Part shown: one piece after another, positions 28,081 through 35,682 of the stretch
Numbering within the stretch: position 1 is the stretch's first letter
Layout of the letters: every line of letters starts with the position of its first letter
NCBI GenBank assembly: GCA_964406075.1
Contig: CAYOQI010000004.1
Coordinates: 57,718-121,717, forward strand
Origin: an uncultured Pseudomonadales bacterium
Lineage (GTDB): Bacteria; Patescibacteriota; Microgenomatia; UBA1400; PJMF01
Direction of reading: 5' to 3'
Length of the DNA: 64,000 bases
Translations under genes and position numbers: made by a program
The notes under the pieces: generated by a model
The model's input: the letters and a program-made list of their open reading frames with translations, nothing else
The model's database searches: none
Told to the model about the DNA's origin: nothing

Positions 28081-28347
28081 TTAATTAAGAAAGCCGAGGT
28101 AGACTTCTATATGATTTTCAATCACTCGTAAAACTCCACTTTTTACCTCAATTTCTTCAACTTTTCCTTCCGGAGTTTTCAGAACGATTTTTTGCTCTAC
28201 TAGAGTGACGAAGTTCGAATGCAGAGACAAAATATCAAACGTACCCTTTTGATTGATGCCTGTCAGAGACAATATAGTACCTTCAAATAGAATACCTTCT
28301 CTATTCCGAACGTGAATAGTCAGCGGTATTTCAGAGTTGTCTATCAT
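28081..28347 (-). CDS. atpC: F1 ATPase epsilon subunit, short form (beta-sandwich only)
   Basis: 88 aa, overlapping the atpD stop by 4 nt. The sequence ([42 protein letters not shown]) resembles the epsilon N-terminal domain. There is no room for the C-terminal helical hairpin. Confidence 0.7.
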
Positions 28348-29753
28348 ACTGCCCCGAGTTCTTGAACTGTACCAATAAAAAGGAAATGACTTTCTGGGAT
28401 AGTATCGTACTTACCACTTAAAATTTGAGCCACTGACTCCACTGTATCCTTTACTGGAACAAAAACCCCTTTTTGCCCCCTTTGAGCTGATGCTGTAAAA
28501 AACTTCTGTGTCATAAAATAACGGAGTTTCCTTGCCCTCTGGAAAATTCGTTGATCCTCGGCGGATAACTCATTTTCTCCAACGAGTGAGACGATTCGCT
28601 CTAACGCTTGCGCATTCTTTAAGAGGTGTCGAGCTTCGAGTACGACATCATAATGCGCTTGACCAACAATTCCTGGCTCTAAGGCAGCAGATGAAGAGGA
28701 CAATACATCAACTGCTGGCAAAATCCCTTCTTGATAGACACTTCGAGATAAAACAGCCACTGAATCAAGATAAGGGAAAATTGTTTGAACAGCATGGTCG
28801 AGTAAATCATCAGCTGGCACATAGATCGCCTGTACAGCACTCATGATTGACGTTGGAGTTGAGACTAATCTTTCTTGAAACTGAGCAATTTCTGATTCTA
28901 GAGTTGCTTGATATCCATCTTCTGACGGAATCGTATGAGTGAGTGTTGATATTTCATTTCCCGCTTGAGCAAAACGAAATAAATTATCAATAAAGAACAA
29001 CACGTTCTTATCCATTTTGTCTCGATAGTATTCAGCAATTGTTAAGGCTGCAAACGCAGACAAGAAACGTGAAGAAGGATTTTCTCCCATTTGACCAAAA
29101 ACTAGTGTGGAAGCATTCATCACCCCAGATTCTTGCAATGACTGATACAACTCGAGTCCTTCTCTACTTCTTTCTCCAACTCCAGCGAATACAGACACAA
29201 AATCTGCATGACTACCCACAACATTATGCAAAATTTCTGTCAGCAACATGGTCTTACCTACACCAGCTCCACCAAACAGGCCCATTTTTCCACCTTTAAT
29301 CAAGGGCGTAAAAAGGTCAATCACTTTGATTCCTGTTTCAACTACTTCCTGATGAGTTGAAATTTCAATGACCGGATGAGCAATATGAATTGGCCATGCC
29401 TCTTCGGTTTCAATTTTTCCTGAACCGTCAGCAGCATATCCAAATGGATCAACCACCTTTCCGAGTAAATTTTGTCCTACTGGAAAAGAGAGTGGTTTTC
29501 CAGTATTTAACACTTTCCCACCTCGGAAAACTTTGTCTCCATGAACTAAACATAAACAGTAAAATGTTTGGGGTCCACTGGATGCATACACCTCTAAAAT
29601 CGTTTCTGGATAATCCTCTAAGTACAGCAAGTCATATATACGTGGTTGATGCTCAAAAAACTGAACCTCAACTACCTGACCTCGAGCAGTAATAATCCTC
29701 CCAAAGGGTTGGGTTGAAGAAACATCATGGTGTGAGTTGGTTGGTACATTCAT
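28344..29753 (-). CDS. atpD: F1 ATPase beta subunit
   Basis: It has Walker [12 protein letters not shown], plus [17 protein letters not shown] and DDLLDHAV motif contexts. Length is 469 aa. Confidence 0.95.
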
Positions 29754-29789
29754 TCGAATTTTTATTTCAAAAAAATTATTTAACTGAAT

Positions 29790-33204: not shown

Positions 33205-34890
33205 TTATTTTTGTTCCAATAAATTATTTCCGGTCATCTCTTTGGGTACAGGTAAATTCATCATGCCTAACATCGTTGGAGCGACATCACTTAATGCCCC
33301 TGGTCGTAGCTGAATTGCTGGATTATTTTTAAATGCTGGATTCATGATAACAAATGGAACGGGGTTATTTGAATGCTCTGTATTTACCGTCCCTGGACTA
33401 CTGGTAAAAAAGAAGCTCGATTGATCATAAGTCAGCAATTCTTCTACATTTCCATGATCTGCTGTGATACACAAAGTACCTTGTCTTTCGATTAATACAT
33501 CGACAATTTCTCCCACCGCTCGATCTACAATTTCACACGCTTTGATCGAGGCTGATAAATTTCCACTGTGCGCAACCATGTCCGGATTCGCAAAATTCAT
33601 GACGATAAAATGATACACATCTTTCTCTAAAGCCAGATGAAATTCTCGCATGATCTCAGACAGAGACATTTCAGGTTTACGATCATATGTCCCTACTTTG
33701 GAAGAAGGCACAATCATAATGTCTTCACCTGAAAATGGCTCAAGTCGCATGCCATCAAAATAATACGTCACCATTTTCTCCTTCTCACTTTCCGCTAGGT
33801 GAAATTGACGAAGGTTTTGTTGAGCCAATACCTCTGAAAGTGTATGCTCAACATCAATTTTGGGATATGCGACTGCGGACACAGGTAAATTATGCTGATA
33901 CTCAGTCATGGTCACAAAACATAAGTTTTTTAAAATAACTGGTCTCTCAAAGGTGCTCACTCTTTTTTGTTCTGTTGAATTCTTAGAGCTCTCGACCAAG
34001 ATTCCCTGTTCAAAATCTGGAAGCACAAATACTTGACTCAACTGCCTGGCACGATCTACACGAAAGTTAAAATAAATCATCGCATCGCCATCTTTGATAA
34101 AGACTGGAGGTTTTCCTGGTTGATTGATAAGAGTTGGGATGACAAATTCATCAGTTAAATTTTGCTCATATGAACTTTTTATAGCCTCAGAAGCACTCGT
34201 TGCCGTTGCTCCTTCTCCAAGCGTCATGACTCGATATACTTTTTCAGTCCTTTCCCATCTGGCATCTCTGTCCATAGCGTAGTAACGACCAGCTACTGAA
34301 ACAATTTGACCAAGTTGAAGCTCAACGAGTCGTTTCTCAATGGTTTCCATCACCCCTGCCCCATCCTGAGGAGGAGCATCTCTTCCATCGGTGAATAAGT
34401 GTAAATACACTCGAGTGAAGGATTGGCGTTTACACAATTCCAACAACGCAAATAAATGTTCGGTCGAAGAATGAACATTCCCTGAGCCAATTAATCCACA
34501 CACATGCAGATTGGTATTATTCTCTCTAGCATAACTAATTGCTTTGAGTAGTGCTCGGTTTGAATAAAAATCTCCAGTTTCAATTGCTTTATTTATTCGT
34601 GGCAAACTTTCCAACACAGTCCTTCCAACCCCCATCGTGAGGTGACCTACCTCAGAATTCCCTACTTCATTGGCTGGCAAACCGACAGATTCACCGGAAG
34701 CAATCAGCTTGGTATTTGGATACTCTGAAATGAGCTGATCCCATCTTGGTAACCGAGCCTGAGACATTGCATTTCCCGCTGAAGGCGGAGCGATTCCCCA
34801 CCCATCCAGCACCAATAAAACCATTGGCCGTATGTTGTACGTCTTGGGAGTAGAAGAAGCGTTGAATAAAGTATCAAGCCAGGAAGACAT
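33205..34890 (-). CDS. gpmI: 2,3-bisphosphoglycerate-independent phosphoglycerate mutase
   Basis: Motifs present are LLVLDGWGI, GNSEVGHLTMGVGR, YYAMDRDARWER and ITADHGN. Its stop lies 1 nt from the atpF start codon. Confidence 0.9.
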   Translation of the reverse strand: MSSWLDTLFNASSTPKTYNIRPMVLLVLDGWGIAPPSAGNAMSQARLPRWDQLISEYPNTKLIASGESVGLPANEVGNSEVGHLTMGVGRTVLESLPRINKAIETGDFYSNRALLKAISYARENNTNLHVCGLIGSGNVHSSTEHLFALLELCKRQSFTRVYLHLFTDGRDAPPQDGAGVMETIEKRLVELQLGQIVSVAGRYYAMDRDARWERTEKVYRVMTLGEGATATSASEAIKSSYEQNLTDEFVIPTLINQPGKPPVFIKDGDAMIYFNFRVDRARQLSQVFVLPDFEQGILVESSKNSTEQKRVSTFERPVILKNLCFVTMTEYQHNLPVSAVAYPKIDVEHTLSEVLAQQNLRQFHLAESEKEKMVTYYFDGMRLEPFSGEDIMIVPSSKVGTYDRKPEMSLSEIMREFHLALEKDVYHFIVMNFANPDMVAHSGNLSASIKACEIVDRAVGEIVDVLIERQGTLCITADHGNVEELLTYDQSSFFFTSSPGTVNTEHSNNPVPFVIMNPAFKNNPAIQLRPGALSDVAPTMLGMMNLPVPKEMTGNNLLEQK

Positions 34891-34902
34891 AGAAATAAAA
34901 AT

Positions 34903-35682
34903 TTACAAAACCAAAATCAAATAAGCTAACGCTAAACCAATTAGGAAAATAAATAACATCAAGACAATATTGATAATAACGGTGGTTTGTATTTGAAAAC
35001 GAGCCAGAGGATTTCTACCAATTGCTTCAATACCCGTTCGCGCAATTCTGCCAAAGAAGATGAAGCCTAAAATAAATGCGGCTAACACGACGATTGCTGC
35101 CAGAATGTATCGTAAAGCAGCCAGTGGTGTTAAGACAGGCGCAGCTAATCCTTCTCTCAACGCTGCAAATAGATTTGAACTGACATCAGTAAATGCGGTC
35201 GTTGGATGAATATTCAAAGAAACTAAAATGATGCCTGTCGCTTCAGGATCATCAGACTCGTAGTTCTCTAAGGCCAAACCTAAAACATATCCATTCCTGG
35301 TTGCTCGCTGAGCAAGGCCTGGTTTCCGTGAACTTGCAATCAAATCACCAGCCGTAATATTTCCATTTTCAGAGCTCACTCGAACTAAGGTTTTCCCATT
35401 TGTAACGGTGAGCCTTTGTGCGCTATCAGTGGCTTCATCAAAAAAAGAAGCTGCTGGATTGTCAGTCACCACACCATAGGTGGAAGAACTATACGAATCA
35501 TCACATAAGTGATAACCATCTTGGCTGGCACAGACGAGATCTCCTTCAATGACAGTATCATTGATTATTGTGACTGGAAGTGCTACTGATGAGGAACTGA
35601 CCTGAGCAAAGATTCTTACAGGTTGTTGACTGAAGATAAGAAAAGAAAGAATGAGAAATAAAATGAGCAGAAATTTTTTCAT
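34903..35682 (-). CDS. secreted-domain protein with a C-terminal ATP synthase c-subunit-like two-helix hairpin lacking the ion-binding carboxylate
   Basis: The track ORF is 34903..35829. I prefer the ATG at 35682, which gives [27 protein letters not shown], a signal peptide. The C-terminus [44 protein letters not shown] resembles a c-subunit loop (R-N/Q-P) and helix 2, but has Leu where the conserved Glu/Asp would align. Confidence 0.6.

Follow-up and report, generated by a model that had tools for sequence, protein, structure and literature searches.

A remodelled F-type ATPase operon with a carboxylate-free c-like subunit beside a giant fiber-like gene in Microgenomates bacteria

The operon and its F1 sector

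The locus considered here lies in a 64-kb stretch of contig CAYOQI010000004.1 from an uncultured Microgenomatia bacterium (the window, by which we mean the whole 64,000 nucleotides) and contains an F-type ATPase operon in which the atpE position is occupied by a c-subunit homolog lacking the ion-binding carboxylate and no a subunit is encoded. Eight open reading frames (ORFs) are tightly spaced on the minus strand in the order c-like, gpmI, b, delta, alpha, gamma, beta, epsilon, with the following coordinates, lengths in amino acids (aa), and main supporting matches or motifs:

34903..35682, minus strand: c-like rotor subunit, 259 aa, positional equivalent of atpE
33205..34890, minus strand: gpmI, cofactor-independent phosphoglycerate mutase, 561 aa (TIGR01307, 558 bits against a cutoff of 331)
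32595..33203, minus strand: b subunit, 202 aa (ortholog profile matches PDB b subunits)
32129..32605, minus strand: delta/OSCP subunit, 158 aa, N-terminal domain shortened (ortholog profile match to PDB)
30665..32113, minus strand: alpha subunit, 482 aa (P-loop GDRKTGKT; arginine finger SVTRVG)
29790..30668, minus strand: gamma subunit, 292 aa, divergent (PF00231, E 4e-26)
28344..29753, minus strand: beta subunit, 469 aa, catalytic, with a Walker B motif (TIGR01039, 490 bits against a cutoff of 463)
28081..28347, minus strand: epsilon subunit, 88 aa, N-terminal beta-sandwich only (PF02823, residues 10-82)

The c-like gene and gpmI are separated by 12 nt, gpmI and b by 1 nt, and the other neighboring genes overlap or lie no more than 36 nt apart. 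The length of the c-like protein is counted from the residues MKKF, and its reading frame is open upstream to a GTG at 35829. The initial annotation of this DNA had described these eight ORFs, their ends, and the 12-nt and 1-nt spacings, all of which were reproduced. It had also proposed a survey of operon structure across related genomes; when this was run the arrangement recurred in more than 80 independent loci, and it is therefore not due to chance.

The same annotation had pointed to gpmI as embedded in the operon, and this gene does sit between the c-like gene and b. In 71 operons covered from the c-like gene through to alpha, nothing but gpmI, b, and delta intervenes; gpmI occurs in 45 of these operons and is missing from those of the Levy-, Ames-, and Sungbacteria type. 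The gene is a lineage-specific insertion of the Woesebacteria branch. A role for GpmI as an integral subunit of the complex was considered and rejected, since the gene is absent from 26 of the 71 operons and from all of the Sungbacteria-type operons.

Pfam and NCBIfam recognize five of the eight products: beta, alpha, gamma, epsilon, and GpmI. Beta clears the cutoff of the atpD equivalog and is recognized as a genuine AtpD, its scores with the FliI/SctN models of NCBIfam being far lower. Alpha reaches 396 bits with NCBIfam, which is under its cutoff, and gamma is matched by PF00231 yet scores just 69 bits against a cutoff of 194 with TIGR01146. The catalytic motifs are strongly conserved across orthologs, with GGAGVGKT found in 66 of 68 beta sequences, GERxRE[GA] in all 68, and the arginine-finger motif SV[TS]R[VI]G in 68 of 69 alpha sequences. 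An alpha3beta3 head with Walker A and B motifs, catalytic Glu, and alpha arginine finger is present, as is a central stalk of gamma and epsilon, the latter with its N-terminal domain only. Judging by these motifs, conserved across 68-69 orthologous operons, F1 (alpha3beta3-gamma-epsilon) appears complete and catalytically competent.

Several subunits of this enzyme are short, as had been remarked from the sequence at the outset. The N-terminus of alpha is about 14 residues shorter than that of E. coli alpha, delta lacks some 20-30 residues of its N-terminal domain, and epsilon (PF02823, E 4.6e-7 over residues 10-82 of 88) lacks the inhibitory C-terminal helices. Epsilon has a median length of 88 aa in the family (range 78-121), so the loss of these helices is a family trait. 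The C-terminal domain of bacterial epsilon restrains ATP hydrolysis, and an ATPase role for the present enzyme is in keeping with the loss of this domain.

The subunits of the peripheral stalk have diverged further, with no significant match in Pfam or NCBIfam for either b or delta (delta to OSCP, E 0.016). Profiles built from 25-28 orthologs of related loci (A3 for delta and A4 for b) were run against PDB sequences. The delta profile aligns to the C-terminal domain of delta/OSCP, which accounts for its top 23 matches and for 25 of 46 overall (best 9o19_W, E 1.6e-7). The best match of the b profile is the b subunit of Chloroflexus aurantiacus (9itj_U, E 1.8e-7), to which it aligns at the N-terminal membrane part and the C-terminal delta-binding part, and it also matches other b subunits amid coiled-coil noise. 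The b protein is divergent, with a middle insertion relative to canonical b, and has a single N-terminal transmembrane (TM) helix in nearly all orthologs, followed by a long helix. A peripheral stalk of b and delta is thus present by profile against PDB, and both genes are found in every locus spanning the slot except in four related species (loci L062, L072, L079, and L081). In these the c-like gene abuts alpha and neither b nor delta occurs anywhere in the fetched locus, which would leave stator-less complexes.

The c-like subunit and the membrane sector

The last 75 residues of the c-like protein are a true c-subunit homolog by profile and fold against solved F-type c subunits. They contain a C-terminal hairpin (residues 184-258, 34909-35133) of two helices joined by a loop with invariant R-N-P, which is preceded by an amphipathic helix at residues 171-180. 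The whole protein has no Pfam match; a profile of its last 80 residues run against all PDB sequences gave 11 matches, of which 10 are F-type c subunits, including the best (2wie_A, E 7e-5) and the Acetobacterium woodii c2 subunit (4bem_A). Structure prediction had been suggested in the initial annotation, and the AlphaFold model of the c-like protein (pLDDT 81) shows a signal helix, a beta domain (about residues 33-157), a short amphipathic helix, and a c-type helical hairpin (184-258). The two-helix hairpin with polar R-x-P loop that defines the ATP-synt_C (subunit c/K proteolipid) superfamily is present. The initial annotation held that this C-terminus "merely resembles" a c subunit, a description that understates the relationship, which is one of homology.

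The cytoplasmic loop, G-[IV]-E-A-[IM]-G-R-N-P-L-A, is almost invariant among c-like homologs, including the Glu at -4 from the loop Arg, and corresponds to the E-G-x-A-R-Q-P loop of canonical c. In E. coli the loop residues cR41, Q42, and P43 contact gamma and epsilon. The canonical ion-binding Glu/Asp is located at +20 from the loop Arg, where 120 of 120 close homologs and 150 of 150 cluster representatives have I, L, V, F, A, M, or G instead. No D or E occurs anywhere in either hairpin helix of these 270 sequences, and the glycine-rich motif of helix 1 (GxGxGxG) is gone as well. The membrane-embedded Glu/Asp expected of an F1Fo c subunit is therefore lacking in all 270, and the claim that the operon has no canonical c subunit holds in the sense that the atpE slot contains a c homolog without the carboxylate. 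With this residue lost throughout, an a subunit would have no partner residue.

Helix 2 (34909-35010) carries a conserved polar stripe on one face, consisting of S/T at +11, N/H/Q at +15, and T/S/M at +19 from the loop Arg, as well as an invariant Tyr at +31. The stripe could serve helix packing, contact with b, or binding of another ligand. It might also be imagined that ions are still moved via a noncanonical site formed by the stripe (S/T+11, N/H+15, T/S+19) along with an unrecognized substitute for the a subunit, and conservation of these polar residues (N, H, or Q at +15 in 120 of 120 homologs, T/S/M at +19) and retention of the stator are in keeping with this idea. The residue at +15 is most commonly Asn, however, which is not protonatable, and no conserved polytopic membrane protein was found in or beside the operon in 71 loci. 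To our knowledge no rotary ATPase translocates ions without a carboxylate, whether in the c/K subunits of F-, V-, or A-type enzymes, and we regard such a site as very unlikely.

No a subunit is encoded in the operon, as the initial annotation had reported, and the library scan and phmmer searches extend its absence to the window and to all of the more than 80 loci. Among window ORFs of at least 110 aa there is no ATP-synt_A protein, and phmmer with the E. coli a subunit found nothing in any window ORF of at least 50 aa. The E. coli a subunit together with three canonical c subunits likewise found nothing among ORFs of at least 50 aa in the window, in 85 loci, and in 80 further loci. The query itself is sensitive enough to detect the a subunits of Bacillus PS3, mycobacteria, chloroplasts, and Chloroflexus with E values of 1e-11 to 1e-26. 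The a subunit, whose two half-channels depend on an essential Arg, is thus missing from the operon, from the window, and from approximately 2 Mb of sequence flanking more than 100 loci, which represents about 2-3% of each genome; closed genomes with the operon (CP055307.1, Woesebacteria Ch104b, and OZ246419.1) were covered within 10 kb of the match. The 1.0-Mb contig CAZFGX010000001.1 and Sungbacteria GCA_016180435.1 carry the operon as well. The Sungbacteria operons are preceded by a gene for a 263-aa protein without Pfam match, a candidate for a divergent a subunit that was rejected, as it is soluble and nuclease-like and has no TM helices.

An ordinary ion-translocating F1Fo would be compatible with these results if a canonical a, and perhaps c, were encoded elsewhere and the c-like protein had an accessory role or made up a minor part of a mixed ring. 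There is precedent for split atp operons, and A. woodii, whose c2 subunit is among the PDB matches above, mixes c subunits that differ in carboxylate number. The small share of each genome covered by the flanks leaves room for such genes, b and delta, the normal braces of a, are retained, and some Microgenomatia carry COG0356, subunit a (PMC10656485). This explanation has to contend with the position of the c-like gene, which occupies the atpE slot directly upstream of b at every locus, with the lack of any a or canonical c in the 2 Mb of flanks, and with the 270 of 270 homologs that have no acidic residue in either helix. The inhibitory domain of epsilon has also been lost, and b and delta have diverged beyond library detection, as might be expected if the demands of a canonical Fo no longer act on them in full. 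We consider an ordinary F1Fo unlikely. The initial annotation had left two alternatives, an a/c pair encoded elsewhere or an unconventional membrane sector, and the second is favored by a c homolog in the atpE slot that has kept the F1-binding loop and lost the carboxylate.

Ahead of the hairpin, the first 26 residues (35605-35682) are a predicted signal peptide and residues ~30-160 (35203-35595) a predicted extracytoplasmic beta domain with two invariant Cys, in agreement with the "secreted-domain" fusion originally described. The topology of the c-like protein is that of canonical c, with the N-terminus outside and the loop inside, and for this reason the N-terminal domain is expected to be extracytoplasmic; the signal peptide and the two Cys are consistent with this placement. 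The fold of the beta domain resembles the C-terminal autochaperone of the phi29 gp12 tail spike and the trimeric capsid stabilization or decoration (cement) proteins of HFTV1, Sf11 (gp40), TW1, and Borrelia phage BB1. Identity to these phage proteins is only 12-16%, and unlike them the c-like beta domain sits on a membrane rotor subunit in a cellular genome. A PHROG scan of the isolated c-like N-terminal domain gave no match.

The likeness to autochaperone and trimeric decoration proteins raises the prospect of a non-rotary complex, in which a static platform of c-like subunits displays the beta domains, for example to nucleate fiber trimerization, and F1 acts as a regulatory or chaperone-like ATPase or as an export ATPase of the FliI/FliJ kind. 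The four species without b and delta would be accommodated by such a complex, and F1-type and type III secretion system ATPases are homologous, as reflected in NCBIfam cross-hits. Nearly all lineages keep gamma, epsilon, b, and delta, however, which are the parts specific to rotary coupling, and beta is a bona fide AtpD rather than a protein scoring best with the FliI/SctN models. A static platform thus seems improbable to us.

The giant neighbor, the second arrangement, and the spread of the family

Upstream of the operon, and divergent from it, is a gene encoding a giant surface protein, with the following features:

36772..52173, plus strand: giant surface protein, 5133 aa, divergent from the c-like gene
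36799-36948, plus strand: cytoplasmic MerR/HTH_17 helix-turn-helix (HTH) domain of the giant, residues 10-59 (MerR, E 4e-10)
37255-37326, plus strand: the one TM helix of the giant, residues 162-185
~50482-50835, plus strand: one copy of the c-like-type beta domain near the C-terminus of the giant (BLASTP)
36726..36746, no strand assigned: palindrome GACAATTGCTCTTAAAATGTC, 26-46 nt upstream of the start of the giant gene, candidate operator for the MerR-type HTH

The ectodomain of this protein is huge, repetitive, and tail-fiber-like, and its copy of the beta domain matches a PHROG tail fiber with an E value of 1.9e-4. This copy aligns to the c-like beta domain with 26% identity over 99 residues (BLASTP, E 2e-9). 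A hidden Markov model (HMM) of the c-like N-terminal domain additionally found the domain in the giant protein of 12 further loci (E 1e-8 to 1e-19), these being the fetched loci whose span reaches the C-terminal region of the giant. In nearly all Microgenomates loci the divergent neighbor of the c-like gene is a giant HTH-bearing protein of 2000-5000 aa. The initial annotation, while correct in its description of the operon, missed this MerR-HTH fiber neighbor that shares the extracellular domain of the c-like protein, which is the strongest contextual clue. A DNA-binding domain tethered to a giant surface fiber is odd in itself.

A palindrome of the form GACATTT-N6-8-AAATGTC lies 17-65 nt upstream of the start of the giant gene across loci. 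In a scan that allowed at most one mismatch per half, the pattern GACATT-N6-11-AATGTC was present in 43 of 77 intergenic regions, while shuffled sequences gave 10 on average and never more than 20. It is a plausible candidate operator for the MerR-type HTH. An N-terminal MerR HTH, divergent transcription from the operon, and a conserved palindrome would suit a MerR-family regulator; the giant has no MerR effector or dimerization domain.

The operon is bordered by non-coding stretches on either side, at 27367-28080 (714 nt) and 35683-36771 (1089 nt), that are unusually long for a small genome. Neither contains an ORF of more than 51 aa, an Rfam scan of 27000-37500 (E<=1) found no RNA family in them, and scans of these operon-flanking gaps for promoters and terminators gave signals not above the shuffled expectation.

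The c-like family is large. A 90%-clustered database holds 446 homologs of about 255 aa, an exhaustive search gave 496 clusters at 50% identity (E<=1e-30), and relatives turned up in at least 179 species when one genome was scanned for each GTDB species. By its gene content and homologs, the window itself falls in the Microgenomates (Woesebacteria-like) section of the candidate phyla radiation/Patescibacteria. The best 80 loci of the scan are titled Woese-, Levy-, and Amesbacteria and Microgenomates, to which the names of c-like homologs add Gottesmanbacteria. Many of the GenBank metagenome-assembled genomes with the operon (L006-L081, from binchicken/SRP assemblies) are titled "uncultured Gammaproteobacteria" or "Pseudomonadales", which are evident taxonomic mislabels.

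This breadth bears on whether the operon is simply a functionless remnant of a decaying ATP synthase, as could be suggested by the loss of the a subunit, the carboxylate, and the C-terminal domain of epsilon, and by the strong divergence of gamma, delta, and b. Intact reading frames, tight gene spacing, and invariant catalytic and loop residues are maintained across the at least 179 species and approximately 500 clusters (50% identity), and such conservation effectively refutes decay.

A second arrangement is found in genomes named in the databases as Parcubacteria group and Candidatus Sungbacteria (L086-L092, L166, and L168). Here the c-like proteins are 420-590 aa long and carry an HTH_17-like domain and an extra TM helix ahead of the beta domain and hairpin. 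The gene order is fused c-like, b-like, delta-like, alpha, gamma, beta, and epsilon, followed at once by a fiber-like surface protein whose N-terminal part is homologous to the region of the Microgenomates giant after its HTH and TM helix. These loci have no giant divergent gene; in three of them (L091, L166, and L168) a small MerR gene of 73-74 aa is divergent from the fused c-like gene. The idea that the HTH of these fusions and the MerR HTH of the giant form one sub-family was considered and set aside, and the link between the two is drawn from architecture and synteny rather than from close homology. In two different fusions and orders, then, a c-like F-ATPase operon, a MerR-type HTH, and a tail-fiber-like protein occur together, a comparative-genomic argument for a functional link rather than for contact. 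Triosephosphate isomerase and phosphoglycerate kinase (PGK) genes are found 2-5 kb upstream in the Sungbacteria loci, while gpmI is inside the operon in the Woesebacteria branch; we note this recurring association with lower glycolysis, which the model developed below does not require.

Other genes of the window encode surface and DNA-uptake functions. Directly downstream of the giant is a second giant ORF (2506 aa, 52448-59968, plus strand) with a Laminin_G_3/concanavalin-like lectin domain at residues ~352-517. DNA-uptake genes lie beside leuS on the minus strand (21835-24865), with ComEA (24251-24865) followed by a ComEC that is split into a Competence-domain ORF (22743-24254) and a metallo-beta-lactamase ORF (21835-22746) overlapping by 4 nt. 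A surface/secretion cluster at 8041-14076 contains a sortase, a TrwB/HerA-like ATPase of 716 aa, a VWA-domain protein, and small proteins, one of which (13597-14076) has a type IV pilin N-methylation motif.

Relation to known ATPases and a proposed mechanism

From the c slot onward, the operon has the subunit order of canonical F1Fo (atpBEFHAGDC): c, b, delta, alpha, gamma, beta, epsilon. It also shares with it a beta that passes the atpD equivalog, the arginine finger of alpha, the P-loops, the c hairpin, and the R-x-P loop. It differs in having no a subunit in the operon, a c subunit with no Glu/Asp and no GxGxGxG helix 1, a signal peptide and outer beta domain of ~130 aa on that subunit, an epsilon without C-terminal helices, highly divergent b, delta, and gamma, and, in one sub-lineage, an inserted gpmI. 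N-ATPase (atpDCQRBEFAG) is also encoded by a divergent F-type operon, but it keeps the a subunit, a Na+-binding c, and AtpQ/AtpR in another gene order. The gene order and the scores of the alt_F1F0 models, which are far below cutoff (TIGR03305, 437 against 752; TIGR03324, 353 against 750), show that the operon is not an N-ATPase.

Reduced rotary ATPases have been described in other ultra-small symbionts, as in the minimal A-type ATPase of Nanoarchaeum equitans and the "minimal complexes" of DPANN and candidate phyla radiation (CPR) organisms, where synthesis is likewise doubtful (PMC10656485, which also makes general remarks on such complexes in CPR). Those cases involve subunit loss only, with neither a carboxylate-free c bearing an ectodomain nor a fiber link described. 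The Microgenomates genome Ch65 has been reported to lack any ATP synthase (PMC7143001), and full-text searches of the literature yielded no description of the present operon.

The closest working likeness is probably to the F1-like ATPases of mycoplasmas, a relation of analogy and not of membership. The G1-ATPase of Mycoplasma mobile (Type 2) is an F1-derived gliding motor without canonical Fo, with PGK bound to its beta subunit, that drives the giant surface "leg" proteins Gli349 and Gli521 in a genome-reduced, host-dependent bacterium (PMC11864180, PMC3369863). These F1-like X0 ATPases (Type 2, and Type 3 represented by MSC_0618/0619) share with the present locus a repurposed alpha/beta/gamma(/epsilon) module of F1, loss of the canonical Fo, giant surface proteins, and a glycolytic enzyme. 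The seven-gene mycoplasma clusters have no c, b, or delta, whereas descendants of all three are kept here, and the mycoplasma partners are unrelated, being GliD/GliE or proteins with 3 and 12 TM helices. The mycoplasma clusters coexist with a canonical Type 1 operon, and the glycolytic gene here is gpmI, which is predicted only to be co-transcribed, while the PGK of the mycoplasmas is bound to beta. The NCBIfam models MMOB1660, MMOB1670, MSC_0619, and MSC_0618 all score below cutoff (359 against 600, 379 against 850, 246 against 520, and 390 against 570, respectively).

With modest confidence, we favor a model in which the operon encodes a non-chemiosmotic, ATP-hydrolyzing F-type motor that is coupled to the surface fiber, a lineage-specific derivative of bacterial F1Fo. 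In this model the c-like subunits would form a ring beneath F1, with their beta domains crowning it outside the membrane. F1 would only hydrolyze ATP, turning or conformationally driving the c-like ring against the b/delta stator, and the extracellular crown would pass this movement to the fiber or template the assembly of the fiber. The movement would serve the assembly, motion, or tensioning of a host-contact structure rather than an ion gradient. Regulation of the locus by the HTH, acting at the conserved palindrome, is probable, and GpmI would be a co-expressed passenger that ties lower glycolysis, and with it the ATP supply, to the motor in one sub-lineage. A more specific version, offered tentatively and on balance doubtful, is an ion-independent rotary machine whose crown engages the homologous domain of the giant, such that torque goes directly to an appendage gripping, pulling, or probing a host.

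A number of points weigh against the proposed motor. The rest of the genome might hold a canonical atpB/atpE pair or, like the mycoplasmas, an additional canonical operon, and COG0356 is assigned to other Microgenomatia, the Roizman- and Curtissbacteria (Suppl. Data 4 of PMC10656485); as these have kept the a subunit, the a-less state is a derived one within CPR. Curtissbacteria GCA_001776545 is entered with a=1 and c=0. Ring formation, binding to F1, and rotation are read from homology, and linkage of the genes to a fiber does not show physical coupling. The HMM of the c-like N-terminal domain did not find the shared beta domain in the Sungbacteria fiber, and the HTH of the fused c-like proteins is weakly similar to the MerR HTH of the giant (hhalign probability 5.6%, pairwise P 0.007). 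Two weak points of the model stand out: b and delta are missing in four species, so that not every member of the family can rotate against a stator, and, with no a subunit, the TM helix of b has no evident partner to brace against.

Genome surveys credit CPR/Patescibacteria with an F-type ATP synthase, and its role in cells without a respiratory chain is unexplained. Here the ion-binding residue of the rotor is gone and its operon encodes no channel subunit, and as judged from these sequences the enzyme therefore cannot work chemiosmotically by the known mechanism in at least 179 species-level genomes of Woese-, Levy-, Ames-, Gottesman-, and Sungbacteria. Metabolic reconstructions that count alpha and beta as "ATP synthase present" would thus be misleading for these lineages. 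With an extracellular domain joined to a c subunit and a genetic tie to giant fibers, the system offers concrete targets for cryo-electron tomography, proteomics, and heterologous biochemistry. Should these genomes prove to have no a subunit at all, no earlier F-type complex would be known to have given up ion coupling and yet kept the descendants of c, b, and delta. An ATP synthase would then have been turned to mechanical or secretory work in reduced symbionts for a second, independent time, the mycoplasmas being the first case. Should the ion-independent rotary version of the model be correct, with torque passed to an appendage, ATP synthase would have given rise to a bacterial surface motor of a new kind, and this would explain why many CPR bacteria that lack respiration keep "ATP synthase" genes.

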